From positions 99,003-123,002 of the forward strand of contig CAXBBM010000003.1 in NCBI GenBank assembly GCA_963973915.1: DNA of 24,000 bases, read 5' to 3'. A program made the position numbers and the translations under genes. Every line of letters starts with the position of its first letter. The first letter of the stretch is position 1. Shown one piece after another: positions 2,593 through 24,000 of this stretch. Under the pieces are notes generated by a model. It saw only the letters and a program-made list of their open reading frames with translations, ran no database searches and was not told where the DNA came from. The stretch comes from an uncultured Polycyclovorans sp. (GTDB taxonomy: Bacteria; Pseudomonadota; Gammaproteobacteria; Nevskiales; Nevskiaceae).

Positions 2593-2616
2593 AATCGGCG
2601 CCGCCGCAGCGCCCAC

Positions 2617-5342: not shown

Positions 5343-6694
5343 AGGCCGAAGCCGGATGCGTGTCCGGTGGCGGCGGCAAGGTTCAGCCGGGCCTGTTGCT
5401 GGGCGGCTTGTGCATTCACGAGCTGGCTGCGGGCACGGGCAAGGTTGGCCTGGGCGGCGACCACATCAAGGTTGTCGGCCACGCCGTGCCGGAAGCGATC
5501 GCGCGCAGAGGCCAGCTCGCGCTGCGCCAGTTCCAGTGCGGCGTGCGCCGCGCGCGCCTGTTCGGCCGTGTTGCCCACGGTGACCACGGCAAGCAGCACG
5601 TCTTCCTCGACCTGACGTTGCAGGGCGGCCAGTTGCAGTCGCTGTTGCTCGATGCGCAGTTCGGACGCGGCCCTGTCAGCCTGCAGGGCGCCGCCGGCGT
5701 AGATCGGCAGACTGAGCTGAGCGCCGATGCGATAGGTGTCCTGCTGGTCCCAGCGATCGGTCGTGGTGGACAGGCCATAGTCGGCGACCAGCGACAGCGT
5801 CGGCAGGCGGCGGCGGCTGGCCTGCGCGTACCGCGCCTCGGCTTCGGCCATCGTGGCGTCGAGCAGCGCAAACTCGGGCCGGTCACGTCGTGCCTGCGTC
5901 AGGGCGGCTTCCGGCCCCGGCGTCTCGTCCCCCTCGGGGGCTTCAAGCGCGCCCTGTAGCGTCAGTGGCGCGGGGTCCAGCGGCAGTTCGCTGAGACCCT
6001 GCAGCCGCAACTGCGAACGCGCCAGCAGGGTCTGCGCTTCCGACCGTGTGTAGCGGGATTGCGCCACTGCCGTTTGCGCGCGGAGGACGTCCACGCCGGA
6101 TGCGACGCCCGCTGCGTGCTGGTCGTGCGCCAGCGTGTCCAGTTCCATGGCCAGGTCCAGGTCGGCCTCGGTGCTGGCCAGATTCTCGCGAGCGGCCAGG
6201 GCGCGGATGAATGCGAGGGCGACTTCAGAGGCCAGGCGTTCACGATCGAGATCGGCCCGCGCCTGCGCGGCGCGTACCGCCGCGTCCGCTGCCGAGCCGG
6301 CGCTGATCTGGGCCAGGTCGATCACCGCCTGCGACAGGCGCAGCCGTGCGTCGAACACGCCGAACGGCCCGATCAGCGAAGGCAGACCCGGAAACTCCAG
6401 TCCCAGCGTGTCGGGATTGACGGTTTCGCGGGTCGCGGTCGCCCCCGCGCTCAGGTGGGGGCGCAATGCGGCATCCGTCGCGACCGCCCTTTGCCGCGCG
6501 ACGGCCACCTCGCGGTCTGCCACGCGGGGGCCGGCGGCGCAGCGCTGGGCCCGTTCGATCAAGGTTTGCAGCGTGAGCCCTTCGGCGGCGGGCAGATCGG
6601 AACAGGGGGTCTGGGCACGCGCCGCACCCAACGCCATCGACCCGGCCATCGCCAGGATGATGCCGACGCGGGCCAGCGATAAATGATCATTCAT
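5339..6694 (-). CDS. TolC-family outer membrane efflux protein
   Basis: Start trimmed to ATG 6694 (MNDHLSLARVGIILAMAGSMALGAARA|QTP signal peptide). The body shows the repeated alpha-helical/beta OMP-efflux pattern. The start overlaps the marR stop by 8 nt. Confidence 0.8.
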   Translation of the reverse strand: MNDHLSLARVGIILAMAGSMALGAARAQTPCSDLPAAEGLTLQTLIERAQRCAAGPRVADREVAVARQRAVATDAALRPHLSAGATATRETVNPDTLGLEFPGLPSLIGPFGVFDARLRLSQAVIDLAQISAGSAADAAVRAAQARADLDRERLASEVALAFIRALAARENLASTEADLDLAMELDTLAHDQHAAGVASGVDVLRAQTAVAQSRYTRSEAQTLLARSQLRLQGLSELPLDPAPLTLQGALEAPEGDETPGPEAALTQARRDRPEFALLDATMAEAEARYAQASRRRLPTLSLVADYGLSTTTDRWDQQDTYRIGAQLSLPIYAGGALQADRAASELRIEQQRLQLAALQRQVEEDVLLAVVTVGNTAEQARAAHAALELAQRELASARDRFRHGVADNLDVVAAQANLARARSQLVNAQAAQQQARLNLAAATGHASGFGL

Positions 6695-7202
6695 GCTGAT
6701 TATTCGGGTTGTTCGGAGTGGTCGCGTGCTGCACCAGTCGAACCAGCAATTCCTGCAACAGCGCGCGCTCACCGGGGCTCAGCGGTTCGAGAAATCGTGC
6801 CTCCTCGTCTTCCAGCGCCGGCTGAAGCCGGGCAATCCAGCGCTCGCCCTGGGGCGTGAGGCTCAGGGTGTTGGCCCGGCGATCGGTGGCTGAACGCTTG
6901 CGCGACACCAGCGCCCGCCGTTCAAGGTCGTCCGCCATCTTCATGGTGGTCGTCCGGTCAGTGCCCAGCAGGGCCGAGATTTGCGCCTGACTCAAGCCGG
7001 GGCGCTGCAGCAGCAGGCGGACCAGGGCGAAATGCCGCGCTTGCAGTCCCGACGGCTGGATGACCGCGTCCAGGCCACGAATCAGCTCGAGTCGCGCCCG
7101 CGCCAGGACGAATCCCAGGTGATCACAGAATTCTTCCGGGATGGGATTCGAGAGGTCGTCGGCAGGGGCGCATGCGGTGCGGGGCCGAATCCGGGTGGGC
7201 AT
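6687..7202 (-). CDS. MarR-family transcriptional regulator
   Basis: 171 aa with a winged-helix core (LSQAQISALLGTDRTTTMKMADDLERRALVSRKRSATDRRANTLSLTPQG). It is the first gene of the efflux operon, and an AT-rich patch at 7225-7250 upstream is the likely promoter/operator zone. Confidence 0.85.
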   Translation of the reverse strand: MPTRIRPRTACAPADDLSNPIPEEFCDHLGFVLARARLELIRGLDAVIQPSGLQARHFALVRLLLQRPGLSQAQISALLGTDRTTTMKMADDLERRALVSRKRSATDRRANTLSLTPQGERWIARLQPALEDEEARFLEPLSPGERALLQELLVRLVQHATTPNNPNNQHE

Positions 7203-7420
7203 CGAAGGGTAGGGGCAGCGAAAGAATGCTCAGTATTGCTGATTAAAAGAACGCCGTCCATGCCTCAGAACACCTGCGCACATGGCCTGCCGCTAGTGGG
7301 TCGCTCAGGTGGCTGCGGCGGCGCGTTCTCGGGCGGGTGGCGGCCACGCTGAAGCCCGCCGCCTCCAGTGCCAAGACGGCTGTGCTTTCCACTTAGGTTC
7401 GGCTCAGTGCAGCCCGTCGG

Positions 7421-8065
7421 TCAGGCGTCGGTCACGGTCGTCGGCACCGGCGGCAGGGCGCTGTCGATCATGTGATCGATGAAGCGGACCACGGACGCTT
7501 GATCGACGCTCGCGAAGCGCATCATCACGATCATGTGGGCCTGGCCGACGAGAATGCGCGCGGCATCGCCGGAAATGACCGCCGGGCAGATCGAGCCGGC
7601 GGTACGGCCCGCTTCGATCATCTGCTCGAACATGTCGATGATGCGTTCCTGCACCTCGACGTAATGCAGCCAGACGCCCTCGCGGACCGAGGTGCTCCAG
7701 TCCAGCCAGACCCGCATGTGCTGTGGTTGCGCGTCAACGCAGGCCTGGAAGGCGTGAAATATGTCGAGCACACGGCTGCGCACATCGGCGGCGGTGGCCC
7801 CGACTGCCATGACCGCATACAGAAATTGTTCGATCTCCCTCAGCACGGCATCAAGCAGGCGTTCGCGGGTGGGGAAATACTCGAAAACGGTGGCCACCGA
7901 CACCGCTGCAAGGCGTGCAACGTCGGCGTGACCGGCCCTGGCGGTGCCGCGCTCGGCGAACGCGGTGATGGCGCAGTCGAGCAACTGGCGCTTGCGCGCC
8001 TCGCGGTCCATGCGCCGGCGCGGCGGCTTGTCTGCAGGACGTGTTGTCGGGGCGGATTTGTTCAT
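7421..8065 (-). CDS. TetR/AcrR-family transcriptional regulator, divergent from the CuMMO operon
   Basis: N-terminal HTH (RKRQLLDCAITAFAERGTARAGHADVARLAAVSVATVFEYFPTRERLL) followed by a helical ligand-binding domain. The start is set at ATG 8065 (MNKSAPT...). The ORF is also open to ATG 8119, and neither start has a clear SD. Confidence 0.85.
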   Translation of the reverse strand: MNKSAPTTRPADKPPRRRMDREARKRQLLDCAITAFAERGTARAGHADVARLAAVSVATVFEYFPTRERLLDAVLREIEQFLYAVMAVGATAADVRSRVLDIFHAFQACVDAQPQHMRVWLDWSTSVREGVWLHYVEVQERIIDMFEQMIEAGRTAGSICPAVISGDAARILVGQAHMIVMMRFASVDQASVVRFIDHMIDSALPPVPTTVTDA

Positions 8066-8182
8066 CGCGCGAAAGATAGCAGCGCCGGGGGCTCCCGTCC
8101 TGCCGCGCGCTGCGCGCATGTCGGTCGCGTCGGGCCGTGAACAGGGCAGTTGCGTGGACCAGCGCCATTCGTCGGCGCGATG

Positions 8183-8211
8183 TTGACAACTCTATCAATT
8201 TGGTTTCTAGT
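8183..8211 (+). promoter_or_regulatory. Candidate sigma70 promoter for xmoC overlapped by an inverted repeat (possible TetR operator)
   Basis: Consensus -35 TTGACA at 8183-8188, a 17-nt spacer, and a weak -10 TCTAGT at 8206-8211. TTGACA-ACTC-TATCAA (8183-8198) is an inverted repeat of TTGAYA half-sites. It lies in the only AT-rich patch of the 364-bp tetR-xmoC spacer. Confidence 0.3.
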
Positions 8212-8259
8212 CCAGTCCATAGACCCCGATCACGGGGCTCGCGGTGAGGAGACAAAAAG

Positions 8260-8415
8260 ATGAAATCAATCGATCGATCGGCCCGTTTGTCGGCACGGAT
8301 CGCGCGCCGCGTCGAAGCGGTTGCACCTCGCCCTCGCTTCAGCTCAGTTGTGTGTCCGGCGCGCGACGTCGGCCCGGTGTGCCCGGCCGGTTTCGGCCCG
8401 TTTTTAACCCGTTGA
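8260..8415 (+). CDS. Candidate 51-aa upstream/leader ORF in the xmoC 5' leader
   Basis: ATG 8260 is preceded by TGAGGAGA (8245-8252), the same SD octamer that precedes xmoC (8415-8422). Translation: MKSIDRSARLSARIARRVEAVAPRPRFSSVVCPARDVGPVCPAGFGPFLTR. The stop TGA 8413-8415 abuts the xmoC SD. The peptide is Arg-rich with a lower GC3 than neighbouring genes, so it may be non-coding. Confidence 0.3.
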   Translation: MKSIDRSARLSARIARRVEAVAPRPRFSSVVCPARDVGPVCPAGFGPFLTR

Positions 8416-8429
8416 TGAGGAGAACCACC

Positions 8430-9224
8430 ATGTCGATCCAAGCGTCGTCAATCCCTTCCGCCCGGGTGCCCAGTACGCCCAAGGCGGAGAAGATGTTCAA
8501 CCTAGGGCCCGTTGCCATCGGCTGGGGGCTGTTGCTCGCAATCTACGCCGGGTTTCGCCTTTACCAGGGCGCGTTCTCGTTCGAGTACGGACTGGATGCC
8601 ACCTCGCCGGAATTTGCGACCTACTGGCTCACCTTGTTCCAGATCGAGGTGCCGCTGATCTTCGGCAGCGGCCTGTGCATCTGGTTGTACCTGTGGTTCA
8701 CCCGCGACCGCGACATGGACAACATGAGCGGTGAGACCGAGCTGAAGCGTTACTTCGGTCTGCTGGCCTGGTTCATGATGTACACCTTCTCGTTTCTGTG
8801 GATCGCCAGCTTCTTCGGTGAAGGCGACGCCACCTGGCACCAGACGGTGATCCGCGATACCGCGCTCACGCCCAGTCACATCGTGGTGTTCTACGCCTGC
8901 GTGCCGATGTACATCGTGTTCGGCGTCAGCAGCCTGCTGTATGCGACCACGCGCATTCCCGCGTTCGCACGGGGCTATTCGCTGCCTCTGATCATGGCGG
9001 TGCTTGGCCCCGGCCTGATTCTGCCCAACCTCGGCTTCAACGAATGGGGCCATGCGTTCTGGATGACCGAAGAAATCTTCAGCCATCCCCTGCACTGGGG
9101 CTTCCCGATTCTGGGCTGGACCGGCCTTGCCCTGGGCGGTTTGTTCATCCAGGTGATCGGCCGCATGGCCGTGTTGTTCAAGGAAGTCGGCGGTCCGCCG
9201 GCAGAAGACGCAGACCTGGCCTGA
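8430..9224 (+). CDS. xmoC: Copper membrane monooxygenase subunit C (PmoC/AmoC family)
   Basis: Start trimmed to ATG 8430 (SD GAGGAG 8417-8422), giving 264 aa. Family signatures: GEGDATWHQTVIRDTALTPSHI (Asp/His/His site) and LGFNEWGHAFWMTEEIFSHPLHWGF (Asn/His/His site). The protein is collinear with remembered M. capsulatus PmoC. Confidence 0.93.
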   Translation: MSIQASSIPSARVPSTPKAEKMFNLGPVAIGWGLLLAIYAGFRLYQGAFSFEYGLDATSPEFATYWLTLFQIEVPLIFGSGLCIWLYLWFTRDRDMDNMSGETELKRYFGLLAWFMMYTFSFLWIASFFGEGDATWHQTVIRDTALTPSHIVVFYACVPMYIVFGVSSLLYATTRIPAFARGYSLPLIMAVLGPGLILPNLGFNEWGHAFWMTEEIFSHPLHWGFPILGWTGLALGGLFIQVIGRMAVLFKEVGGPPAEDADLA

Positions 9225-9248
9225 GTCGCCAAGGTGCAGCACGGCGCC

Positions 9249-9270
9249 CGACCCCCGGCTGCGGGGGTCG
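9249..9270 (+). other. Perfect 9-bp GC hairpin in the xmoC-xmoA spacer (RNA stability/processing or partial terminator candidate)
   Basis: CGACCCCCG (9249-9257), loop GCTG, CGGGGGTCG (9262-9270), located 25 nt after the xmoC stop. No U-tract follows. Confidence 0.4.
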
Positions 9271-9385
9271 CGAGGCCTGATGACAAAAACGCTGTCGTCC
9301 AGCAGGGATCCGAGTCCGGCGCCGCGCCCAGCGCGCCGGCCGGCAAGAGTCTGGACAGACATAGAAGAATTCGAGGAGGGTGCCC

Positions 9386-10225
9386 ATGACTGAAAATGAC
9401 CGTGCGATTCTGAAAGTGTCCGAGCTGTCGCCCCAGGCGATCGGCTGGTCGCGAACGCTGGACCTGTTGATCATCGTTGTCGCCGCCTTCCTGATCTGGT
9501 CGGTGTCGCACATCAGTTTCCTGCTGCTCGGGGGCGACTGGGATTTCTTCATCGACTGGAAGGATCGCCAGTATTGGATCCTCATCATCCCGATCACCAC
9601 CATCATCATGGCGGCCTCGTTCCAGGCCATATTCTGGAATCTGTTCCGTCTCCCGATCGGCGCCACGGCAAGCCTGCTGCTGCTGTTGCTCGGCACCTGG
9701 ATCGTGCGTTACCACAGCTGGGAGGGGCTGGCCTATTTCCCCATCAGCCTGGTGGTGCCCGGAACCTGCCTCATGGGCGCGCTGGTGCTCGACGCCATTC
9801 TGGTGCTGTCGCGCAGCTGGCTGGTGACCGGCATGTTCGGCGCAACGCTGTACGGCCTGCTGTTCTATCCCGCCAACTGGACGTACATGGCCGGCTATTT
9901 CCAGCCGGTGATGAACATGGGCGACATGACCTCGGTCGCGGACCTGATCGGCTACGTCTTTCCGCGTGCCGGAACCCCCGAATACATCCGCATCATCGAG
10001 CGCGGCACCCTGCGCACCTTCGGTGACACGCCGACCTGGGTGTCGGCGTTCTTCGCCGCGTTCGTGTGCATCTTTTTGTATTACCTGTTCTGGGGTCTCG
10101 GTGTGCTGGCCTGCAATGCACGCTTTTTCCCGGTGGGCGAGCGCTTCAAGTCCCTCTACGGCGCCAAGGGCGCCAAGGACCAGACCGCCGGTGGCCCGGT
10201 CACCCAGCCAGGAGCCTCATCATGA
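9386..10225 (+). CDS. xmoA: Copper membrane monooxygenase subunit A (PmoA/AmoA family)
   Basis: ATG 9386 sits 6 nt after SD GAGGAGG (9373-9379), giving 279 aa. Signatures: GGDWDFFIDWKDRQYW, FYPANW and RAGTPEYIRIIERGTLRTFG. The stop overlaps the xmoB start (ATGA). Confidence 0.93.
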   Translation: MTENDRAILKVSELSPQAIGWSRTLDLLIIVVAAFLIWSVSHISFLLLGGDWDFFIDWKDRQYWILIIPITTIIMAASFQAIFWNLFRLPIGATASLLLLLLGTWIVRYHSWEGLAYFPISLVVPGTCLMGALVLDAILVLSRSWLVTGMFGATLYGLLFYPANWTYMAGYFQPVMNMGDMTSVADLIGYVFPRAGTPEYIRIIERGTLRTFGDTPTWVSAFFAAFVCIFLYYLFWGLGVLACNARFFPVGERFKSLYGAKGAKDQTAGGPVTQPGASS

Positions 10226-11511
10226 GCCTGCATCTCCGCATGCCGCGTCGCGGCCTGAGTCTGTCGCTGTTGCTCGCGGTGATGACGTTTGCCAGCACGC
10301 TGGTGCCGGTGCCCGTTGCCGCGCACGGCGAACGCGCCACCGAACCGTATATCCGCACCCGCACCGTGCACTGGTACGACGTTACCTGGTCGACGCAGCA
10401 GGTGGGGGTCAACGAGACGGTGACGGTGGAAGGCAAATTTCACCTGTTCACCGACTGGCCTGATGCCGCGTCCAAGCCGGAACTGGCGTTTCTGTCGAAT
10501 GCCACGCCTGGCGCGGTGATGACCCGCGTCGAGTCGTACATCAACGACATGCCGGCGCAACAGTCGGTAAGTCAGCTGGAAGTTGGGGGCGACTACAGCT
10601 TCAAGCTGGTGATGGCCGGTCGCGTGCCCGGTCGCTGGCACCTGCATCCGGTGCTCAGCGTGCATGGCGCAGGCCCCATCGTCGGGCCCGGCCACTGGGT
10701 CGAAGTCACCGGCAGCGCGGCGGACTACAAGCTGCCCATCACCACCATGACCGGCGAGGTGATTGACGACCTTCAGCACTACGGCGTCGCGCGCCTGCAG
10801 TTGTGGCAGGCCGGTTATGCCTTGATTGCCGTCGCCTGGATTTTCTGGTGGATCCGCCGGCCGCTGATCGTGCCGCGCTGGAATGCCATCCGTAAGGGAC
10901 GCGAAGATCTGCTGGTCACGCGCACCGATGACCGGGTCGCGGCCGCCATGCTGGTGCTGGTGCTGGTGGTGGTGATCTTCGGCTACCACCACGCCACTCA
11001 AAAGTATGAGTACGTGGTGCCACTGCAGGCCGGCTCGTTCAAGACCAAACCCCTGCCGCTGCCGCCCCCCGAAGTGGCGGTGCAAATGAAGGACGCCACC
11101 TACGACGTCCCCGGCCGCAGCCTGCGGCTCGACGTCGAGGTCACCAACCAGTCCGACTCACCGATGCGCCTCGGGGAATTCACCACCGCCAACCTGCGCT
11201 TCCTGAACAAGTCGCTGGCCGTGGCCTTGGCCGGGGTCGATCCCTCGTTCCCCAAGGACCTGGTTGCGGGTTCCGGCCTCAAGCTCAGCGACGATTCGCC
11301 CATCGCCCCCGGCGAGACGCGGACCATGCGTATCGAGGCCACCGATGCGGCCTGGGAGATCGAACGGCTTGTCAGCTTCCTGACCAACGTCGACAGCCGC
11401 GTGGGCGGCATGCTGTTCTTCTTTGACGCGCAAGGACAGCGCCACATGGTGGAAGTGTTCGGCCCGATCATCCCGGTGTTCACCCAGTTGCAGCTCGCGC
11501 AACGTCACTGA
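10222..11511 (+). CDS. xmoB: Copper membrane monooxygenase subunit B (PmoB/AmoB family)
   Basis: Start trimmed to ATG 10222 (SD AGGAG 10210-10214), giving 429 aa. The signal peptide ends VPVAA|HGERATEPYIRTRTVHWYD. Other features are GRWHLHPVLSVHGAGPIVGPGHW, two central TM helices, and a C-terminal cupredoxin domain (LGEFTTANLRFL, APGETRTMRIEATDAAWE, GMLFFFDAQG). Confidence 0.93.
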   Translation: MSLHLRMPRRGLSLSLLLAVMTFASTLVPVPVAAHGERATEPYIRTRTVHWYDVTWSTQQVGVNETVTVEGKFHLFTDWPDAASKPELAFLSNATPGAVMTRVESYINDMPAQQSVSQLEVGGDYSFKLVMAGRVPGRWHLHPVLSVHGAGPIVGPGHWVEVTGSAADYKLPITTMTGEVIDDLQHYGVARLQLWQAGYALIAVAWIFWWIRRPLIVPRWNAIRKGREDLLVTRTDDRVAAAMLVLVLVVVIFGYHHATQKYEYVVPLQAGSFKTKPLPLPPPEVAVQMKDATYDVPGRSLRLDVEVTNQSDSPMRLGEFTTANLRFLNKSLAVALAGVDPSFPKDLVAGSGLKLSDDSPIAPGETRTMRIEATDAAWEIERLVSFLTNVDSRVGGMLFFFDAQGQRHMVEVFGPIIPVFTQLQLAQRH

Positions 11512-11524
11512 GGGTTACGGCCAA

Positions 11525-12112
11525 ATGCAGAATCGATCGGCTTACCGCGGGTTACGCGCCGCGCTGCTCACCTGCGGCGCGGTGCTGGGGTTGGCGCTGT
11601 GTCAGGGGGCGGGCGCGCACGGCGGTCTGTCGATCGACGACGACATGTGCAAGCTGCGCCTGGGGCCGTTCAACATGCACTTCACCGGCTATCAGCCGGC
11701 GATCAATGGTAACCGCGAGTTCTGCGAAGACATTCCCAAGGTCGGCCATACCATCGTGGTCATGGATGCGATGGACCCCGAGTTGCGCGAAATGCCCATC
11801 GAGGTGCGGATCATTCGTGACACCGGCGACGAGCGCCAGCTCGATGCGATCACCGTGGCGCATCTGCCCCCGAAGATCTACGAATCGGGCAGCGTGCCGC
11901 TGGAATACAGCTTCACCACGCCGGGCAGGTTCGTCGGCCTGGTGACGGCCGGTGACCAGGGGCAGTACACCTCGCGCTTTCCGTTCAGTGTGGGCATTCC
12001 ACCAAAGCGCTACGGCTTCTATCTGCTGTTTGTTGGCGTCGCGCTGCTGGGCTTCGGGCTCTACCGTTATTCGGGAATGAAGCGACAACGCCAGATGGCC
12101 GACCAGATCTGA
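11525..12112 (+). CDS. Secreted, C-terminally membrane-anchored protein in the xmoD position (PmoD/AmoD-like, putative copper-binding)
   Basis: ATG 11525 lies 13 nt after the xmoB stop, giving 195 aa. Signal peptide MQNRSAYRGLRAALLTCGAVLGLALCQGAGA|HGG. The domain is rich in Cys, Met and His (DDDMCKLRLGPFNMHF, EFCEDIPKVGH, VVMDAMDPELREMP). A C-terminal TM helix YGFYLLFVGVALLGFGLYRY is followed by a basic tail. Homology to PmoD is inferred from position and architecture, not verified. Confidence 0.55.
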   Translation: MQNRSAYRGLRAALLTCGAVLGLALCQGAGAHGGLSIDDDMCKLRLGPFNMHFTGYQPAINGNREFCEDIPKVGHTIVVMDAMDPELREMPIEVRIIRDTGDERQLDAITVAHLPPKIYESGSVPLEYSFTTPGRFVGLVTAGDQGQYTSRFPFSVGIPPKRYGFYLLFVGVALLGFGLYRYSGMKRQRQMADQI

Positions 12113-12127
12113 GTCTGGCCGGCCATC
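12094..12127. terminator. Hairpin in the convergent junction between the xmo operon and the minus-strand CoA operon
   Basis: GATGGCCGACCAGA (12094-12107), loop TCTGAG, TCTGGCCGGCCATC (12114-12127), giving 14 pairs with one A/C mismatch. The loop contains the stop codon of the xmoD-position gene. There is no U-tract on either side. Confidence 0.35.
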
Positions 12128-12143
12128 CGGTTGCGGCAAGCGA

Positions 12144-12929
12144 TCAAACCCTGAAGTCGGGCTTGCGCTTTTCCAGGAAGGCGTTGACGCCCTCGCGATG
12201 CTCCGGGCTCTTGGCCGCGAGCACGAAGTGCGAGGACACCTGGTCGAGATGGGTGGTGAAGTCCAGGTGCAGGCCCTGGTACGCCGCCCGCTTGGTCAGA
12301 CGCATCGCGGTGGCGGCGCCGTCGGCCAGACGACGCGCCAGTGCACGGGCCTCGTTCTCCAGCTCCGCCAGCGGCACCACGCGATTGAACAGGCCGATGC
12401 GCCGGCCTTCCTCGGCTTCGACGAAATCGCCGGTGAGCAGCATCTCCAGCGCGCGCGGCAGGCCGACGATACGCGGCAGCAGCCAGGCGCCGCCGTCGCC
12501 GGGAACCAGGCCGATCTTGACGTAGCTCGCCGCCACCCGCGCGTTGTCGGCAGCGACGCGAAAATCACATTGCAGCGCCATGTCCAGGCCGGCCCCGGTG
12601 GCCGCGCCCTGCATCGCGGCCACGACCGGCTTGTCGATCTGCATCATAAGTTTCGGAATGCGATGCACGCCCGACCACAGCTTGGTCTTGTGGATCGACG
12701 GCGGACCTTCCAGCTCGCGCTTCATGTCGTGCAGATCGCCACCGGCGCAGAAATGACGGCCGTTGGCGCGCAGCAGCACGGCACGCACGGCGTCATCGTC
12801 GTGGCATTGCTGCAGGGCCGCGACCCAGGCATCGAGCATGGGCTCGTCGAAGGCATTGCCGGCGTCCGGCCGGTTGAGGACGATTTCGCCGACGCCGTCG
12901 ACGATGCTGAACAGCAGGGGTGCGGTCAT
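12144..12929 (-). CDS. Enoyl-CoA hydratase/isomerase (crotonase superfamily)
   Basis: 261 aa: GEIVLNRPDAGNAFD...RANGRHFCAGGDL...AAMQGAATGAGLDMALQCDFRVA, a typical crotonase fold signature. Confidence 0.88.
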   Translation of the reverse strand: MTAPLLFSIVDGVGEIVLNRPDAGNAFDEPMLDAWVAALQQCHDDDAVRAVLLRANGRHFCAGGDLHDMKRELEGPPSIHKTKLWSGVHRIPKLMMQIDKPVVAAMQGAATGAGLDMALQCDFRVAADNARVAASYVKIGLVPGDGGAWLLPRIVGLPRALEMLLTGDFVEAEEGRRIGLFNRVVPLAELENEARALARRLADGAATAMRLTKRAAYQGLHLDFTTHLDQVSSHFVLAAKSPEHREGVNAFLEKRKPDFRV

Positions 12930-12995
12930 GTGCAGGGGTTCCTGTGAGAGTGGGCCAGGCTCAACGCCCGGCGTACGAATGAAGGTGCAACGGAT

Positions 12996-13799
12996 TCAGC
13001 TGGCACGCGCGAGGATGGCGCGGGCGCGTTCGACGACCGGGCGATCCACCATCTGGCCGTTGAGCGCCACGGCGCGGCCGTCGGCGCTGTCGTCGGCCGC
13101 GACCACGCGGCGCGCCCAGTCGATGTCGGCCGGGGTCGGGCCGAAGCCGCGATGCACCGGCGCGATCTGCTGCGGGTGGATGCACAGCTTGCCCGTGAAG
13201 CCGAGCGAGGCGGACCGTCGCGTGTCGGCCTCGACCACGTCAGGATCGGAGAAGCTGGTGGTCACGCCGTCCACCGGCGAGGGCAGGCCGGCGAGGCGCG
13301 AGGCCAGCACCAACTGCATGCGGTAGGGATCGAGCACCGGCTCGTCGCCGGGAATGGCCAGGTCCAGGCGCAGGTCGATGCTGCCGAACACCAGGCGCTC
13401 GGTGCCGTTCGCCGTGGCGATGTCATCCAGCCGCGCCAGGCCCAGGCCACTTTCGATGGTGGGCAGCACCGGGCGCGCGGCGGCAAGGTGCAGTTCGGTG
13501 ACCAGCGCGCCGGACTCGGCCTTGGGCAGCACGATGCCGGCGATGCCGGGCAGCCCGCACAGCGCGCGATCCGCCGCGAACCACGGCGTCTGCTCGCCGT
13601 TGATGCGCAGCCAGATCGGTCGCGCGGCGTCGAGGCTGGCGCGCACCGCGGCGCGCGCGTCGTCCTTCTCGGCCGGTGGCACCGCGTCTTCCAGATCGAC
13701 GATCACCGCGTCGGCGCCGCTGGCGATGGCCTTGGCGATGCGTTCGCAGCGGTTGCCCGGCACGAACAGGTAGCTGCGCGCGGGGATCACGACAGCCAC
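12996..13799 (-). CDS. HpcH/HpaI-CitE family acyl-CoA lyase (citramalyl/malyl-CoA lyase-like)
   Basis: 267 aa with a GTG start: RSYLFVPGNRCERIAKAIASGADAVIVDLEDAV...GKLCIHPQQI, characteristic of CitE-like lyases. The start overlaps the upstream PrpD-family gene by 13 nt. Confidence 0.85.
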   Translation of the reverse strand: MAVVIPARSYLFVPGNRCERIAKAIASGADAVIVDLEDAVPPAEKDDARAAVRASLDAARPIWLRINGEQTPWFAADRALCGLPGIAGIVLPKAESGALVTELHLAAARPVLPTIESGLGLARLDDIATANGTERLVFGSIDLRLDLAIPGDEPVLDPYRMQLVLASRLAGLPSPVDGVTTSFSDPDVVEADTRRSASLGFTGKLCIHPQQIAPVHRGFGPTPADIDWARRVVAADDSADGRAVALNGQMVDRPVVERARAILARAS

Positions 13800-15157
13800 C
13801 CCTGGACGCTGGCCTCGCTCTCGAGATTCCAGACCCGCTGGATGATCGCCTTCATCTCGCCATCGCTTGCGCCGCGCGCGTAGGACGCGAGCCTTTGCGC
13901 CTTGTCCTCGAGTTCCGGCCGGCTAAGCGTGTTGCCGGGATCGCCCTTGGGTTCATCGACACGCGCCTCGAAGCTGCGGCCGTCGGTGGTCTTGACCCAG
14001 ACCTTGCCGATCCAGCGCGCCGGGTAGGCGCCTTCGACTTCCGCATCGAGCGTCATGCGCACCTTCTTGCGCACCGCGACCACCTTGGCATCCAGGTAGT
14101 GCGCGTCGAAATCCGGCAATTGCGCGCGGCCAAAGACGGCGATCAGACCCAGCACCGTGCCCATGGAGAACTTGGACTGATGCACGGAGGACGGTTCGAC
14201 CACCGGCGCCAGCACGTCGATGGCGCTCTGGTGCACGCCGCACAGCACGTCGGCGAGATCCTCGTGCTTGAGGTTTTCGCGCTGCATGAGGGTTTGCAGC
14301 GCATCGGCGGCCGGGTGCGTGTGACGGCAGGACGCATGGAACTTGAAGGAGGACTCGGCCAGGGTCCATCGCGTGCCCAGGCCATCGACCAGCTTGGCCG
14401 GGTCGGCGCCCTCGGACATCGAGGCACCCATGCCACCGGCACCTTCCAGCGCGCGCCGCGCACCGGTATAGCCGTCGGCGGCCAGCTCCGCGGCGGTGAT
14501 GCCGGCCATCGCGGCATGCGCGCAGTGCAGCTGCTTGGACTGTGCGCCTTCGCGCAGGTATTCCCAGAGCCCGCCGGCCTGCGTCGCCGCACTGCCGAAG
14601 GCCCAGGCCATCTGCTCGGCATTCAGGTTGAGCAGGCGTCCGGCGGTGGCCGCCGCCGCGATGCAGCCGACCGTCGCCGTGGTGTGGAAGCGCTTGTAGT
14701 GCGCGCGGCCCAGGAACTCGCCGATGCGGATGCCCACCTCGTAACCGGCGACGATGGCTTCCAGCATCTGCGCGCCGCTGGCCTTGCGCGACTGTGCGAG
14801 GGCCAGCGCCGGCCCGAACACCACGGCGGCGGCGTGAAACACCGAGCCGTTGTGCACGTCGTCCTGCTCGACCATGTGCGAGGCGCCCGAGTTGAGCATG
14901 GCGGCGAACAGCGGATCGACGCGCTTGCGCGAGGTCAGCAGTTCGGCATCGCCGGGCTTGGCGTGGCGCTCGACGAAGCGCTCCAGCGCCTGCACCGGTT
15001 CGCCGCTGCGGCCGGCAAGGGCGCAGGCCATCCAGTCCAGGAACAGATCTTCGGCGCGGCGCAGCACATGGGCTGGAACGCGGGCGCAGGAAATCTCGGC
15101 GGCGAAGCGGGCGAGTTCGGCGCCCTGGTCGGCGGCGGGGGTGAGGGTGAGAGTCAT
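13787..15157 (-). CDS. MmgE/PrpD-family protein (2-methylcitrate dehydratase-like, function unknown)
   Basis: Start trimmed to ATG 15157 (MTLTLTPAADQG...), giving 456 aa. The length and motifs (SGASHMVEQDDVH, GFHTTATVG-like KRFHTTATVGCIAAAA, FKFHASCRHTHPAADA) fit the PrpD family. Confidence 0.85.
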   Translation of the reverse strand: MTLTLTPAADQGAELARFAAEISCARVPAHVLRRAEDLFLDWMACALAGRSGEPVQALERFVERHAKPGDAELLTSRKRVDPLFAAMLNSGASHMVEQDDVHNGSVFHAAAVVFGPALALAQSRKASGAQMLEAIVAGYEVGIRIGEFLGRAHYKRFHTTATVGCIAAAATAGRLLNLNAEQMAWAFGSAATQAGGLWEYLREGAQSKQLHCAHAAMAGITAAELAADGYTGARRALEGAGGMGASMSEGADPAKLVDGLGTRWTLAESSFKFHASCRHTHPAADALQTLMQRENLKHEDLADVLCGVHQSAIDVLAPVVEPSSVHQSKFSMGTVLGLIAVFGRAQLPDFDAHYLDAKVVAVRKKVRMTLDAEVEGAYPARWIGKVWVKTTDGRSFEARVDEPKGDPGNTLSRPELEDKAQRLASYARGASDGEMKAIIQRVWNLESEASVQGWLS

Positions 15158-15194
15158 GTGCGGTTCTTTGAATGGGTGAGAAAAGGTGCTGGGT

Positions 15195-16373
15195 TCAGAT
15201 CGCCTTGGCCGCGCGCAGATCGGCGATGTCGGCGTCGCTGTAGGCGAGTTCTTGCAGGATCGCGCGCGTGTGCGCGCCGAGGGCCGGCACCGGGCCGAGC
15301 CGGACATCGTCGGCATCGCGTCGTCCCGGTGGAATCAGCACCGGAATTTCGCCGCCCGGAATCGGCACCCGGTCCCAGCGGCCGCGCGCGGCGAGTTGCG
15401 GGTGGTTCCAGACCTCGTGCACGTCGTTGATGCGGCCATTGGCGATGCCGGCCTCGTCGAGCCGGCGCACCAGTTCCCCGATGCCGATGTCCTTGAATGC
15501 CGCGGTCGCGATCTCGTCGATCTGTTCGCGATGTGCCACGCGCTGGGCGTTTCCGGCAAACCGCGCGTCGTCCGCCAGCTCCGGTTGCTGCAGCACGACG
15601 CGCGCAAACAGCTTCCACTCGCGGTCGTTCTGCACGCCCAACAGCACGCTGCCGCCGTCGCCGGCCGTGAACGGGCCATAGGGGTAGATCGTCGCGTGCG
15701 CCGCACCACTGCGCGGCGGCGGACTGGCGCCGTCCAGCCCGAAATACAAGGGGTAGCCCATCCACTCGGTCATCGACTCCAGCAGGGCGATGTCCACGCG
15801 CCGGCCGCGGCCGGTACGGCCGCGCTCCAGCAGCGCCGCGAGGATGCCGCTGTAGGCGTACATGCCGGCGGAAATGTCAGCGATGGAATTGCCGGCCTTG
15901 GCCGGTGCGTCGGCGGTGCCGGTGATCGACAGAAAACCGGATTCGGCCTGGATCAGCAGGTCGTAAGCCTTTTTCTCGACATAGGGACCGCTGTCGCCGT
16001 AGCCGGAGATGTCGCAGACGATGATGCGCGGATCGCGCGCCGACAGGGCCTCGTAGGACAGGCCCAGCCGCGCCGCCGCACCGGGGGCCAGGTTCTGCAC
16101 CAGCACGTCGGCCTTGGCCACCAGTTTCATCAGCGCGGCATTGGCCTGCGGGTGCTTGACGTCCAGCGTCAGGCTTTCCTTGCTGCGGTTGCACCAGGCG
16201 AAGTGCGAGGCCACCCCCCGCGCGCGCTGGTCATAGGCGCGGGCGAAGTCGCCGCCCTCGGGCCGTTCGATCTTGATGACACGCGCGCCGAGATCCGCGA
16301 GGTGTCGCGTTGCCAGCGGAGCCGCGATGGCGTGCTCAAGAGAGACGACCAGCAGGCCATCCAGCGGCAGCAT
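15195..16373 (-). CDS. Family III CoA-transferase (CaiB/BaiF family)
   Basis: Start trimmed to ATG 16373 (MLPLDGLLVVSLEHAIAAPLATRHLADLGARVIKIERPEGGDFAR...), giving 392 aa. The start shares one nucleotide with the upstream ACAD stop (TGATG). The 5' two-thirds of the 761-aa track ORF is an out-of-frame read-through of that ACAD. Confidence 0.88.
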   Translation of the reverse strand: MLPLDGLLVVSLEHAIAAPLATRHLADLGARVIKIERPEGGDFARAYDQRARGVASHFAWCNRSKESLTLDVKHPQANAALMKLVAKADVLVQNLAPGAAARLGLSYEALSARDPRIIVCDISGYGDSGPYVEKKAYDLLIQAESGFLSITGTADAPAKAGNSIADISAGMYAYSGILAALLERGRTGRGRRVDIALLESMTEWMGYPLYFGLDGASPPPRSGAAHATIYPYGPFTAGDGGSVLLGVQNDREWKLFARVVLQQPELADDARFAGNAQRVAHREQIDEIATAAFKDIGIGELVRRLDEAGIANGRINDVHEVWNHPQLAARGRWDRVPIPGGEIPVLIPPGRRDADDVRLGPVPALGAHTRAILQELAYSDADIADLRAAKAI

Positions 16374-17536
16374 CAGAACGACCTCGGCAGGCCGAGCACG
16401 TGTTCGGCCACGTACGAGAAGATCAGGTTGGTGGAGATCGGGGCGACCTGATACAGCCGCGTCTCGCGGAACTTGCGCTCGACGTGGTATTCCGACGCGA
16501 AGCCGAAACCGCCGTGGGTCTGCAGGCAGACGTTGGCGGCCTCGAACGAGGACTTGGCGGCCAGGTACTTGGCCATGTTGGCCTCCGCACCGCAGGGCTG
16601 GTGCGTGTCGAACAGCTCGCAGGCACGCCAGCGCATCAGGTTGGCCGCCTCGACCTCGATGAAGGACTCGGCGATCGGGAACTGCACGCCCTGGTTCTGG
16701 CCGATGGGCCGGTCGAAGACCACGCGATCGTTGGCGTAGCGCGTGGCGCGATCCACGAACCAGTAGCCGTCGCCAATGCACTCGGCGGCGATCAGGGTGC
16801 GCTCGGCGTTGAGGCCGTCGAGGATGTACTTGAAGCCCTGGCCTTCCCTGCCGATCAGGTTCTCCTCGGGAATCTCCAGGTTGTCGAAGAACACCTGGTT
16901 GGTCTCGTGGTTGACCATGTTCGGGATCAGGCGCATCTCCATGCCGTGGCCGACCGCCTGGTCGAGATGCACCATGAAGATCGACATGCCCTCGGACTTG
17001 CGCTTCACCTGGTCGATGGGCGTGGTGCGCGCGAGCAGGATCATCAGCTCCGAATGCTGCAGGCGCGAGATCCACACCTTCTGGCCGTTGACGACGTAGC
17101 GGTCGCCCTTCTTGACTGCCGTGGTCTTGAGCTTGGTGGTGTCGGTGCCGGTGGTCGGTTCGGTCACGGCCATGGACTGCAGGCGCCATTCGCCACTGGC
17201 GATCTTGGGCATGTACAACTGCTTCTGCTGCTCCGAGCCGTGACGCAGCAGGGTGCTCATGTTGTACATCTGCCCGTGGCAGGCACCCGCATTGCCGCCA
17301 CAACGGTTGATTTCCTCCATGACCACCGACGCCTCGGCCAGCCCCAGCCCCGAGCCGCCGTATTCCTGCGGAATCATCACCGACAGCCAGCCCGCTTCGG
17401 TCAGTGCCTTGATGAAGGCTTCCGGGTAGCCGCGCTGTTCGTCGATCTTCAGAAAATATTCGTCGGGGAAGCGGCTGCACAGGTCGCGCAGCGCATCGCG
17501 CATTTCCGGGAACCGCTCGTGTCGTTCAATGGGCAT
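16373..17536 (-). CDS. Acyl-CoA dehydrogenase
   Basis: 387 aa with typical ACAD architecture (QKQLYMPKIASGEWRLQSMAVTEPTTGTDT, VNGQKVWISR, HGGFGFASEYHVERKFRETRLYQVAPISTN). Confidence 0.9.
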   Translation of the reverse strand: MPIERHERFPEMRDALRDLCSRFPDEYFLKIDEQRGYPEAFIKALTEAGWLSVMIPQEYGGSGLGLAEASVVMEEINRCGGNAGACHGQMYNMSTLLRHGSEQQKQLYMPKIASGEWRLQSMAVTEPTTGTDTTKLKTTAVKKGDRYVVNGQKVWISRLQHSELMILLARTTPIDQVKRKSEGMSIFMVHLDQAVGHGMEMRLIPNMVNHETNQVFFDNLEIPEENLIGREGQGFKYILDGLNAERTLIAAECIGDGYWFVDRATRYANDRVVFDRPIGQNQGVQFPIAESFIEVEAANLMRWRACELFDTHQPCGAEANMAKYLAAKSSFEAANVCLQTHGGFGFASEYHVERKFRETRLYQVAPISTNLIFSYVAEHVLGLPRSF

Positions 17537-17572
17537 GAGTTGTGATGGGGGATTTCAGTGGTGGTGGAGGCA

Positions 17573-18028
17573 TCAGGCGGCGGCGCGCCGGCGCAGCAGG
17601 CGCAGCGGCGTGTAGACCAGCACATCGTGGCCGTGCTGGTTGATCACGCGGTTACGGCTGCGGACCAGGCCGCGGTCGCCCTTGGAGGTGGTGCGGGCCT
17701 CGATGACCTCGCACTCGACGTGAATGGTATCGCCCACGCAGGTGGGTGCGCGCACGTCAACATCGGCATGTAAAAACGCAAGGCCGGTGTGCTGGATGGC
17801 GGGGGTGAGCAGGCCCTCGGCGAAGCTCATGACCAACACGCCGGGCACGACCTTGGCCGGCAACGACAGGCCCTCGCGCGCCGCGTGGTTGGTGAACACT
17901 TCCTCGGTGAGCCAGGTCAGGTTCACGAAGCTGCCGAGGTCGGCCTCGGCCAGCGTGCGGCCGGCGCTGCGGAAGCGGAAACCGACGGGCAGATCTTCGA
18001 AGTGAAAGCCGATGCCGATGGTCTTCAT
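17573..18028 (-). CDS. MaoC-like (hotdog) acyl-CoA hydratase/dehydratase
   Basis: Start trimmed to ATG 18028 (MKTIGIGFHFEDLPVGFRFRSAGRTLAEADL...), giving 151 aa. ATGA overlap with the upstream CoA-transferase stop. Confidence 0.8.
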   Translation of the reverse strand: MKTIGIGFHFEDLPVGFRFRSAGRTLAEADLGSFVNLTWLTEEVFTNHAAREGLSLPAKVVPGVLVMSFAEGLLTPAIQHTGLAFLHADVDVRAPTCVGDTIHVECEVIEARTTSKGDRGLVRSRNRVINQHGHDVLVYTPLRLLRRRAAA

Positions 18029-19269
18029 GCCGCACCGTTTGCAACGGCAGGGGTCGCGACGCCGCCTTGGGTGACGGCCAGGATGGCCGCCTCGTCGTAG
18101 CCGATTTCGCGCAGCACCTCGGCCGTGTGCTCGCCCAGGCGCGGGGCGGGACGGGTAGGGCCGGGCGGGCTGTGCGACCAGGTGCTGGGCACCGACATCG
18201 ACAGCAGCGTGCCCTCGCTGGGGTGTTCGACCGGCGAGAAAAAGCCCACGGCGCGCAGATGCGGGTCGTCGAGCAGGCTGTCGGGCGTGTGCATGGGCAT
18301 GCAGGGAATGTCGGCCTCCTCCAGCGCCTGCATCCATTCGGCGGTGGTGCGCATCGGCATCTGCTCGGCGACGAAGCGGTACAGCGCGTCGATGTGCTGG
18401 GTGCGGGTGGTGAGGCTGGCGAGCCGGGGGTCGGCGTCGAACATCTGCGGTTGGCCGATCAGCGCGCAGAAGCTTTTCCACTGCCGGTTGGAGTAGATCA
18501 GGGCGCAGATGTGGCCGTCGCGCGTGGGGTAGGGCCGGCGTTCGTGTGCCAGCAGGCGCGCGTAGCCGGCCGGCCCCTCGGCGGGCACGAAACTGCGTCC
18601 ACCCAGGTGATCGCCCATGACGAACTGGGTCATGGTCTCGAACATCGGCACGTCGACGCTCTGGCCCTCGCCGCTGCGTTCGCGATGCAGCAGCGCGGCG
18701 AGAATCGCGCCCACCGCGCTGAGCCCGACCGTGCGGTCGGCGATGGTGGTGGGCACGTAACGCGGGGTCGGGCTGCCGGCCATCAGCGACAGCGCCGGCA
18801 GGCCGGCCGCGCCCTGGATCAGATCATCGTAGGCCGGTCGATCGCCATACGGACCCGCACGGCCATAGCCGAACACGCCGACATAAACGATGCGCGGATT
18901 GACCGCGCGCACTTCTTCGTACGACAGGCCCAGCCGCGCCATCGCCTGCGGACGCACGTTGTAGATCAGCACGTCCATGTTCTCAGCCAGGCGCAGCAGC
19001 GCGGCGCGCGCCTCGGGACGCTTGAGGTCGAGCACCATGCTGCGCTTGCCGCGATTGGCGTTGAGGAAGATCGCGCCCATGCCGGGCGAGCGCATCGGGC
19101 CGATGCCGCGTGTGCCGTCGCCCTCCGGCGGTTCGACCTTGAGCACCTCAGCCCCGTACTCCGCCAGAATCTGCGTGGCATAGGGCCCCATCAGCACCGT
19201 GGTCAGGTCGAGGACGCGCACACCGTTCAGGGGTCCGGACATGGTGTCGCGCTCAGCGTTGGTCAGCAT
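18025..19269 (-). CDS. Family III CoA-transferase (CaiB/BaiF family), second copy
   Basis: 414 aa: GPLNGVRVLDLTTVLMGPYATQILAEYGAEVLKVEPPEGD...AYDDLIQGAAGL. An alternative start is ATG 19242. Confidence 0.88.
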   Translation of the reverse strand: MLTNAERDTMSGPLNGVRVLDLTTVLMGPYATQILAEYGAEVLKVEPPEGDGTRGIGPMRSPGMGAIFLNANRGKRSMVLDLKRPEARAALLRLAENMDVLIYNVRPQAMARLGLSYEEVRAVNPRIVYVGVFGYGRAGPYGDRPAYDDLIQGAAGLPALSLMAGSPTPRYVPTTIADRTVGLSAVGAILAALLHRERSGEGQSVDVPMFETMTQFVMGDHLGGRSFVPAEGPAGYARLLAHERRPYPTRDGHICALIYSNRQWKSFCALIGQPQMFDADPRLASLTTRTQHIDALYRFVAEQMPMRTTAEWMQALEEADIPCMPMHTPDSLLDDPHLRAVGFFSPVEHPSEGTLLSMSVPSTWSHSPPGPTRPAPRLGEHTAEVLREIGYDEAAILAVTQGGVATPAVANGAA

Positions 19270-19278
19270 GGCAGCGCG

Positions 19279-20913: not shown

Positions 20914-20926
20914 CGGATTCTCCTGA

Positions 20927-23364: not shown

Positions 23365-24000
23365 CGCAGCACGAATCCTTCGTAGCCCTTGGCGGCCACC
23401 TCGTCGCACTTCATGCGGTAGTTGGGGGTGCCGCCGATGTAGACCAGAAAGCGCGGGATGCCGTCGGCGGTGTCGGTGTCGACAAACCAGGCGTCGTTGG
23501 ACAGCAGCAGCCCCTGAGTCACTTCATAGGCATGGCGGGTCCATTCGCGCTCGGCTTCTGCGGTGGTTTCAATGTGCGCCTTGCCGGTCTTCAGCATGTG
23601 CCCGATACAGTCGCTGACCCAGTCAACGTTCTGTTCGATGCAACGCGGAATGTTGCAGAAGGAGGCGGCGTTGTGGGGGCCGACCAGGGTGAACAGATTG
23701 GGGAAACCGCTTACCTGCAGGCCCAGGTAGGTCTCCGGCCCGTTCTTCCACTTTTCGGTCAGTTTCTGGTCACCGCGCCCGCGAATGTCGATGCGCTTGA
23801 ACGCGCCGGTCACCGCGTCGAAGCCGGTGGCGAAGATCAGCACGTCGAGTGGATATTCGCGGTCTCGGGTTTTCACGCCGGCAGGCGTGATGCGCTCGAT
23901 CGGGTTGTCGGGCAGGTGGACGAGTTCAACGTTGTCCTGGTTGTAGACCTCGTAGTAGTGCGTCTCCATGGGCACGCGCTTGGTGCCGAAGCCGTGCGTC
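23361..24000 (-). CDS. Flavin-dependent Baeyer-Villiger-type monooxygenase, C-terminal part (5' end beyond window)
   Basis: The reading frame is open to the window edge (THGFGTKRVPMETHYYEVYNQDNVELV...). LDVLIFATGFDAVTG, GFPNLFTLVGPHNA and the C-terminal pattern resemble type I BVMOs (cyclohexanone/acetone monooxygenase class). The N-terminal FAD/NADPH motifs are not in the window. Confidence 0.75.
   Translation of the reverse strand, partial: THGFGTKRVPMETHYYEVYNQDNVELVHLPDNPIERITPAGVKTRDREYPLDVLIFATGFDAVTGAFKRIDIRGRGDQKLTEKWKNGPETYLGLQVSGFPNLFTLVGPHNAASFCNIPRCIEQNVDWVSDCIGHMLKTGKAHIETTAEAEREWTRHAYEVTQGLLLSNDAWFVDTDTADGIPRFLVYIGGTPNYRMKCDEVAAKGYEGFVLR

Follow-up and report, generated by a model that had tools for sequence, protein, structure and literature searches.

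XmoD, a PmoD/AmoD homologue encoded directly after the copper membrane monooxygenase genes of an uncultured Polycyclovorans species

The xmoCABD locus

The 24,000-nucleotide stretch of DNA from an uncultured Polycyclovorans sp. analysed here (the window) carries an operon for a copper membrane monooxygenase (CuMMO), in which the subunit genes xmoC, xmoA and xmoB are followed by a final gene, xmoD. We find that XmoD is a genuine PmoD/AmoD homologue and, by its motif, a member of the Cx8MHxnC subclass, and we consider what it may do for the monooxygenase that is encoded with it. The genes of the operon and the parts of XmoD are listed below; residue numbers are those of the precursor, and an arrow marks a predicted signal peptidase site.

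8430..9224, plus strand: xmoC, CuMMO subunit C (Pfam AmoC PF04896, E = 4.9e-85; NCBIfam AmoC_BACT, 323 bits)
9386..10225, plus strand: xmoA, CuMMO subunit A (Pfam AMO PF02461, E = 1.3e-77)
10222..11511, plus strand: xmoB, CuMMO subunit B (Pfam Monooxygenase_B, E = 2.3e-143)
11525..12112, plus strand: xmoD, 195 amino acids, PmoD/AmoD family, Cx8MHxnC (amoD/orf5-type) subclass by motif, final gene of the operon
11525..11617, plus strand: Sec-type signal peptide, residues 1–31, with predicted cleavage at AGA↓H (n-, h- and c-regions; conservation in homologues)
11618..11647, plus strand: N-terminal arm H32-GGLSIDDDM41, with His32 as predicted mature residue 1, 10 residues before Cys42
11627..11995, plus strand: predicted periplasmic cupredoxin-like beta-sandwich, residues 35–157 (strands at about 35–156 in the AlphaFold2 (AF2) model; top Foldseek matches 6cpd_B and 6cpd_A)
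11648..11680, plus strand: C42-x8-M51-H52 segment, beta1–beta2 hairpin (HMMER alignment to 6cpd_A; conservation)
11717..11737, plus strand: E65-F-C67-E-D-I-P71 loop with the second invariant cysteine, equivalent to PmoD Cys65 (invariant or nearly invariant columns)
12011..12109, plus strand: C-terminal transmembrane helix (about 163–184) and basic, predicted cytoplasmic tail MKRQRQMADQI (AF2 helix 163–194; hydropathy peak 164–182)

XmoD has 1,431 homologues at E ≤ 1e-3 in a collection of 5.8 billion proteins, which fall into 657 clusters at 50% identity. Conservation was read from two sets: a close set of 121 homologues that are at least 51% identical to XmoD, and a diverse set of 149 representatives of the 50%-identity clusters. 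As the first-pass annotation of this DNA, made from the sequence alone, had noted, the gene begins 13 nucleotides past xmoB (TGA at 11509–11511, ATG at 11525). A Shine–Dalgarno-like GAGGG motif overlaps the xmoB stop codon. A TTG at 11423, inside xmoB, was rejected as the start because 95 of the 121 homologues begin at a methionine aligned with 11525, and also because the Shine–Dalgarno-like motif precedes that ATG. The ratio of non-synonymous to synonymous substitution rates (dN/dS) of xmoD is 0.12–0.23 against four Nevskiales orthologues, indicating a real gene under purifying selection.

Elsewhere in the operon, the xmoA stop and xmoB start codons overlap (ATGA), and xmoC and xmoA are separated by 160 untranslated nucleotides (9225–9385). 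The likely start of xmoC is the ATG at 8430; the mechanically called open reading frame opens at 8244. XmoB has the predicted mature N terminus A↓HGE and an HLH motif at residue 140, as in CuB-type ligands. We found no sigma-70-like promoter in 7300–12400 and no terminator-like site 3' of xmoD; 31 nucleotides separate the end of this gene from that of the convergent gene for an enoyl-CoA hydratase. About 30 nucleotides 5' of the likely xmoC start, a GC-rich hairpin precedes a run of T (GGCCGGTTTCGGCC CGTTTTT, 8385–8398).

The signal peptide of XmoD comprises the n-region MQNRSAYRGLR, a 14-residue h-region (AALLTCGAVLGLAL) and the c-region CQGAGA, with alanine at −3 and −1 and His32 at +1. In the close set, alanine occupies −1 in 111 and −3 in 94 of the 121 homologues, and the sequence upstream of residue 32 varies in length and composition, with invariance opening exactly at His32-Gly33. 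The cut first proposed, at AGA↓HGG and exposing a histidine, is thus upheld as a prediction. Reading LALC26 as a lipoprotein signal was rejected: leucine at −1 is at odds with a lipobox, and homologues have S/P/A in place of Cys26. The acidic run and C-x8-M-H segment that had been pointed out were confirmed in place, the metal-type segment reading DDDMC42KLRLGPFNM51H52F.

The AF2 model of the precursor, built with 77 homologues, has a mean predicted local distance difference test (pLDDT) score of 91.2 and consists of a signal helix, a beta-sandwich and a helix at 163–194. The lone C-terminal transmembrane helix with a basic tail, also noticed at first pass, is therefore seen in the model as well as in the hydropathy profile. 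In close homologues this segment is better conserved than the h-region of the signal peptide (the commonest residue of a column has a mean frequency of 0.58, versus 0.31 in the h-region). Position 176 is G/A/S in nearly all sequences (glycine in XmoD), and the aromatic residues Tyr166 and Tyr180 are conserved.

Family membership and ligand register

A phmmer search of XmoD against PDB sequences returned a single match, PmoD chain 6cpd_A (E = 3.4e-22, residues 40–157). Consistent with this, Foldseek placed the AF2 model on 6cpd_B with E = 3.1e-13, a target-normalized template modelling (TM) score of 0.84 and a root mean square deviation of 2.2 Å over 125 columns at 39% identity, and the matches after 6CPD were generic Ig-like domains at E > 1e-4, more than eight orders of magnitude weaker. 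Pfam and NCBIfam scans matched XmoD to no family, which agrees with Fisher et al. 2018 (PMC6189053), according to whom there is no profile family. The same paper describes the family by a signal peptide, two invariant cysteines, a C-terminal transmembrane helix and linkage to CuMMO genomes; XmoD combines sequence similarity, a predicted signal peptide, a CxnC pattern, a transmembrane helix, a length within 150–250 amino acids, the fold and CuMMO neighbours. Taken together, the PDB sequence match, the AF2 model and its superposition on 6CPD demonstrate that XmoD is a genuine PmoD/AmoD homologue, not an analogue.

The first-pass annotation had recognized a PmoD/AmoD/AmoE-like architecture, a view that the sole PDB match, the fold and the xmoC-A-B-D context bear out; its suggested AlphaFold check yielded the PmoD-type fold. 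It had left undecided whether the protein was a true PmoD homologue or an undescribed partner. The first holds, and 'undescribed' does not: the Solimonas aquatica orthologue Ga0070002_111104, 61% identical to XmoD, appears in Supplementary Data 2 of PMC6189053 as a Cx8MHxnC protein in a CuMMO operon (organism group 'other'), so such a gene in such an organism was already catalogued.

Conservation separates the candidate copper ligands. Invariant in the close set are H32, G33, D40, C42, G47, H52, F53, E65, F66, C67, D69, P71, G74 and D81, as well as core glycines and aromatics. Among the diverse representatives, the column conservation is 100% for C42, 98% for C67, 94% for G33, 89% for H32, 74% for H52 and 64% for M51. 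The first-pass annotation had also drawn attention to a second cysteine and a methionine cluster; both are present (the latter in the segment VVMDAMDPELREMP), but only the cysteine, Cys67, is conserved. In the close homologues the columns of the cluster read L/M at M80, I/V/L at M83 and M/L/I at M90, and that of His75 reads H/P/R, so these four residues were ruled out as ligands. Conservation across orthologues therefore retains Cys42, Cys67 and His52, whereas Met51 is substituted, by leucine in 7 of the 121 close homologues and by A/I/V in wider representatives. Position 50 is variable and polar (N/A/S/T/R/K), and positions 49 and 53 are aromatic. Going by this pattern of substitution and alternation on beta-strand 49–56, and not by measured geometry, Met51 is probably core-facing and so not a ligand.

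The register against PmoD points the same way. The HMMER alignment to 6cpd_A pairs Cys42 with PmoD Cys41, Asn50 with Met49, Met51 with Ile50, His52 with His51 and Cys67 with Cys65. In PmoD Met49242_1452, the CuA site is built by Cys41, Met49 and His51 of two monomers, which form the Cx7MxH motif of alpha-methanotroph PmoD and of AmoE from ammonia-oxidizing bacteria (AOB) (PMC6189053). Of the three positions raised at first pass as possible matches to the PmoD ligands, Cys42 and His52 align, whereas Met51 falls on Ile50 and the ligand Met49 on Asn50; the CuA register C-x7-M-x-H is thus absent from XmoD, and Met51, out of register and replaceable, is unlikely as a CuA ligand. Instead, this alignment assigns XmoD, at the level of sequence, to the described Cx8MHxnC (amoD/orf5-type) subclass, the second operon-linked class, with 13.4% of sequences and AOB amoD as its counterpart (PMC6189053). 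XmoD is 53% identical to AmoD but 35% identical to the adjacent AmoE of a Nitrosomonadaceae locus (L073; amoCAB-E-D-copC); against comammox Nitrospira loci the values are 55–63% for D1, 40–52% for D2 and 30–41% for E, the best match being the middle of three tandem paralogues.

CuA formation is reported for Cx7MxH proteins only, and the other classes tested according to the main text of PMC6189053 were Cx8M, Cx9H and CxnC; we found no Cx8MH protein among those tested for CuA in that main text. Independent homology modelling of Nitrosomonas europaea AmoD found two of the three CuA ligands conserved, and no site was modelled. Because the methionine of the PmoD ligand set is out of register, a PmoD-style homodimeric CuA centre would not be expected as the working state of XmoD.

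The predicted N-terminal histidine

The mature protein is predicted to open with a histidine, as first proposed: H32 and G33 are present in all 119 of the 121 close homologues that align there, and the sequence fits AxA↓H. Among the 130 N-terminally complete diverse representatives, 107 have a histidine exactly 10 residues before the first cysteine and about 10 more have it shifted by one or two positions, and the spacing holds in every motif class found among them (Cx8MH, Cx9H and Cx8M). Signal peptidase does not require a histidine at +1, so the constraint would act on the mature N terminus. AOB AmoE likewise opens with A↓HG, and a predicted N-terminal histidine recurs in other proteins of the same clusters, namely AmoB/XmoB (A↓HGE) and CopC (A↓HAQ, A↓HSM). 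In nitrifier clusters (L025, 7300–9718; L073, 7302–9083), AmoE-like proteins (A↓HGA/A↓HGK), AmoD (A↓HGG) and CopC (A↓HS/A↓HA) follow one another consecutively; the third comammox paralogue opens instead with ...AEAQHFHELDKNFC.

By contrast, alpha-methanotroph PmoD has a methionine-rich arm and no histidine (A↓EGGAGPEAMSMGNM-C) in all 120 sequences retrieved with the 6CPD sequence. In addition, every published construct carries an extra N-terminal Ser-Met, by which a free alpha-amine would be blocked. A copper site at the N-terminal histidine would therefore have escaped detection, because the one member that has been crystallized and dissected by spectroscopy, alpha-methanotroph PmoD, naturally lacks the residue and the constructs carried the extension. 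The supplementary table of PMC6189053, which covers 860 sequences, has an 'H1' column, suggesting that its authors tracked the N-terminal histidine; the main text of that paper does not discuss the residue, and our literature search found no paper that combines 'PmoD' and 'histidine brace'.

We therefore raise, as a tentative proposal that is more probably wrong than right, that the working copper site of AmoD-type proteins is the N-terminal histidine in an H-x9-C arm (histidine-brace-like or His/Cys), not a homodimeric CuA centre. His52 and His113 are candidates for the second histidine of a brace-type site, in which copper would sit in a T-shaped N3 geometry between the N-terminal amine, the imidazole of His1 and that second histidine. 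If the proposal were true, XmoD/AmoD would pass copper to subunit B, at an N-terminal site, A↓HG(E), of similar chemistry. Among the candidate ligands, only the two cysteines are better conserved than the predicted histidine, which lies beyond the reach of the published experiments.

Operon linkage and a proposed role in copper handling

To place XmoD in its genomic context, we compared 80 related loci. Outside Nitrospira, every one of the 25 loci whose upstream sequence is complete has the order xmoC-A-B-D, an outcome that answers the co-occurrence survey proposed at first pass in the affirmative, and three more loci that are truncated by contig ends have xmoB directly before the D gene. The taxa concerned are Nevskia, Panacagrimonas, Solimonas, Bradyrhizobium, Sterolibacterium, Rhodocyclales, Rhodoferax, Acidovorax, Methylibium, Hyphomicrobium and Nitrosomonadaceae; comammox loci have the D-type genes as a tandem of three, and amoCAB lies a few kilobases off. 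A copC gene lies 3' of the D gene or genes in 63 of the 80 loci (for example L037, from S. aquatica, and L044, L046 and L073), but no copC was found in the window, in the nearest Nevskiales relatives or in the Bradyrhizobium loci, in the sequence around each locus (L002–L006, L009, L010, L012 and L013). These copC-less Nevskiales and Bradyrhizobium loci carry a minimal xmoCABD.

Long-range tblastn comparisons with comammox Nitrospira and Nitrosomonadaceae gave 53–62% identity for D, against 42–48% for C, 38–42% for A and 37–43% for B, whereas within Nevskiales the order is reversed (80–84% for D and 86–95% for CAB). That XmoD is better conserved than XmoC, XmoA and XmoB between hydrocarbon-type and ammonia-type operons points to a job that is independent of the substrate.

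We propose that XmoD is a dedicated copper-handling protein for the CuMMO encoded with it, a reading that we put at about even odds or marginally better. The precursor would be exported by the Sec pathway and cut after Ala31, as the sequence and its conservation suggest. This would leave in the periplasm a cupredoxin-like beta-sandwich of about 130 residues, its fold established along with the homology, with the C-terminal helix as its putative tether in the inner membrane. Copper may be bound near the N terminus through Cys42, Cys67, His52 and probably the mature His32, and XmoD would acquire, hold or insert copper at the periplasmic face of XmoCAB. We favour this role because disruption of pmoD in Methylosinus trichosporium OB3b causes a copper-dependent growth defect, and because every family member tested binds copper, whatever its motif (PMC6189053). 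The retention of the gene after xmoB even where copC is missing, together with the long-range conservation of D, argues in the same direction.

Several points weigh against a dedicated copper-handling role. The authors of PMC6189053 rank electron delivery, copper loading and structural stabilization as equal possibilities. The 6CPD crystal contains a Cys41–Cys65 disulfide (PMC6189053); if this bond is native, Cys42 and Cys67 of XmoD would be structural, leaving His32, His52 and acidic residues as ligand candidates. The His32 arm is not placed by AF2 (pLDDT 64 for residues 31–40 of the precursor, and below 50 at the four N-terminal residues in a model of the mature protein), so the model offers no geometry in support of a His32/Cys42/His52 site, and strand alternation would have Cys42 and His52 point to opposite sides of the hairpin. 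Finally, actinobacterial CuMMOs work without any PmoD (PMC6189053), so that the accessory is not universally required.

The copper could instead serve electron transfer. XmoD would then dimerize, and bridging Cys42 thiolates and His52 would form a CuA-like mixed-valent dicopper centre that feeds XmoCAB. PmoD Met49242_1452 does form CuA in vitro from two monomers (PMC6189053), Cys42 and His52 align exactly with its Cys41 and His51 at the same 10-residue spacing in the same fold, and a 2026 review calls pmoD/amoD 'proposed to be an electron-transfer partner'. However, the Met49Ala variant of PmoD abolishes CuA (PMC6189053), and in XmoD the equivalent of Met49 is the variable, polar position 50, whereas the neighbouring Met51 alternates with L/A/I/V in the manner of a buried residue. 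The restriction of reported CuA centres to Cx7MxH proteins and the two of three ligands kept in modelled N. europaea AmoD argue likewise. The PmoD centre is also unstable to oxygen (2026 review), and Cys65 is dispensable for CuA (PMC6189053) even though both cysteines are universally conserved. We consider an electron-transfer role unlikely.

Somewhat less probable still is that XmoD is mainly a structural subunit or tether, its C-terminal helix docking on XmoC/XmoA to stabilize the CuMMO complex, with copper secondary. Such a role is among those offered in PMC6189053, and a 2026 preprint tentatively assigns unidentified helices of comammox ammonia monooxygenase (AMO) to AmoD/E-like proteins. 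The conservation of the transmembrane segment, with Gly176, Tyr166 and Tyr180, also exceeds what a plain anchor would need. Yet structures of particulate methane monooxygenase (pMMO) and AOB AMO did not show PmoD, and the extra helix in AOB structures from cryo-electron microscopy (cryo-EM) is a different small protein. Moreover, it is the periplasmic domain, with its His/Cys positions, that is most conserved, which a purely structural role leaves unexplained.

General periplasmic copper buffering or detoxification by a genomic hitch-hiker on xmoCAB, with no specific action on the enzyme, is very improbable: although many PmoD paralogues outside pmo/amo operons, beside copC, multicopper oxidase or PCuAC genes, bind copper (PMC6189053), and copC so often follows the D genes, the Cx8MHxnC subclass is the operon-tied one and in the 2018 dataset 98.5% of the PmoD sequences belong to species with a gene for a pMMO/AMO homologue (PMC6189053), and the linkage to xmoB persists in Gamma-, Beta- and Alphaproteobacteria even without copC, so that buffering fits the paralogues outside operons better than the operon-locked subclass of XmoD.

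PmoD/AmoD is the accessory most tightly tied to CuMMOs, the enzymes that start the oxidation of methane, ammonia and short alkanes, and at this locus a minimal xmoCABD, from a lineage that is neither nitrifying nor methanotrophic, keeps an amoD-type protein as its only accessory.

By its closest DNA matches, the host is a gammaproteobacterium of the Nevskiales: the window shares 96.6% identity with a contig from an uncultured Polycyclovorans metagenome-assembled genome (MAG) across 4.2 kb, and 91.6% with a 'Panacagrimonas sp.' MAG across 16.6 kb. One regulatory gene lies divergently upstream of xmoC.

7421..8119, minus strand: TetR-family regulator gene (Pfam TetR_N, E = 1.2e-8)

This gene is a candidate regulator of the xmo operon. 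Further upstream (about 2600–7400) are genes for a major facilitator superfamily (MFS) transporter, an HlyD-type adaptor, an outer-membrane efflux protein and a MarR regulator. The efflux block sits between acyl-CoA genes and the TetR/xmo unit; because it is present in one related locus (L002) and missing from the syntenic position in two others (L003 and L004), it is best read as an indel beside the operon. On the other side, a convergent run on the minus strand (12144–23975) encodes the enoyl-CoA hydratase, an HpcH/citrate-lyase-beta-like lyase, MmgE/PrpD, two family-III CoA transferases, four acyl-CoA dehydrogenases and an AMP-dependent ligase, which suggests a cluster for the degradation of dicarboxylates or branched acyl-CoAs. 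No hao, copC or copD was found in the window. Against the cut-offs of the NCBIfam bacterial AMO 'equivalog' models, XmoC (323 versus 319 bits) and XmoB (549 versus 336) pass and XmoA (274 versus 290) fails. Automatic annotation would therefore probably mislabel the xmo operon as AMO, although its neighbours belong to acyl-CoA metabolism and hao is missing.

Comparison with known systems

XmoD shares a cupredoxin-type beta-sandwich with the CuA domains of cytochrome c oxidase subunit II and N2O reductase, and PmoD superposes on such domains at about 3 Å over about 80 C-alpha atoms (PMC6189053). However, XmoD lacks the Hx34Cx3Cx3Hx2M motif, its candidate ligands lie elsewhere in the fold, and no CuA domain was among the top 50 Foldseek PDB matches of the XmoD model.

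Copper sites with an N-terminal histidine are found in the histidine-brace proteins: the CuB site of PmoB/AmoB, CopC, the PCuAC-like PmoF, YcnI and the lytic polysaccharide monooxygenases. What XmoD has in common with them is the predicted position of a histidine directly after an AxA signal peptidase site; in neither sequence nor fold did it match any of these proteins.

The closest structural relative, PmoD Met49242_1452 of Methylocystis sp. Rockwell (6CPD), is homologous and has the same fold, with the first cysteine, the histidine and the second cysteine in register, and, like xmoD, its gene lies in the operon after subunit B. The two differ in the methionine ligand, which is shifted by one position and leaves Asn50 of XmoD at the place of Met49. 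PmoD Met42 and Met44 are lysine and arginine in XmoD, and the mature N terminus, methionine-rich and devoid of histidine in PmoD, reads HGGLSIDDDM-C in XmoD, with a histidine and an acidic run.

The nearest described relatives are the AmoD (orf5)/Cx8MHxnC proteins, for which we compared beta-AOB AmoD, comammox Nitrospira AmoD1 and S. aquatica Ga0070002_111104. The names need care, because the 'AmoD' (a transmembrane helix) and 'AmoE' (a two-helix soluble protein) of AOB AMO cryo-EM structures are unrelated to the orf5/orf4 PmoD homologues (PMC12804982, PMC13058606). XmoD differs from the nitrifier members in its setting: its host is a heterotrophic-looking member of the Nevskiales, with acyl-CoA genes around the operon and no hao in the window, a single D gene stands where beta-AOB have an E-D pair and comammox bacteria an E-D1-D2 triplet, and neither copC nor copD lies downstream. 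Clusters of the xmoCABD type have reportedly been described in alkane-using Betaproteobacteria (Rochman and colleagues, in ISME J in 2020). In other respects XmoD resembles this subclass, with the signal peptide, the beta-sandwich, the C-terminal transmembrane helix, the C-x8-M-H...C pattern, the A↓HGG start, a gene placed directly after subunit B and about 49–62% identity to the nitrifier proteins. XmoD is therefore largely ordinary, a member of a named subclass with a relative already in the founding dataset of the family, and what makes it worthwhile is the near-universal predicted N-terminal histidine, together with a minimal xmoCABD in a non-nitrifier.

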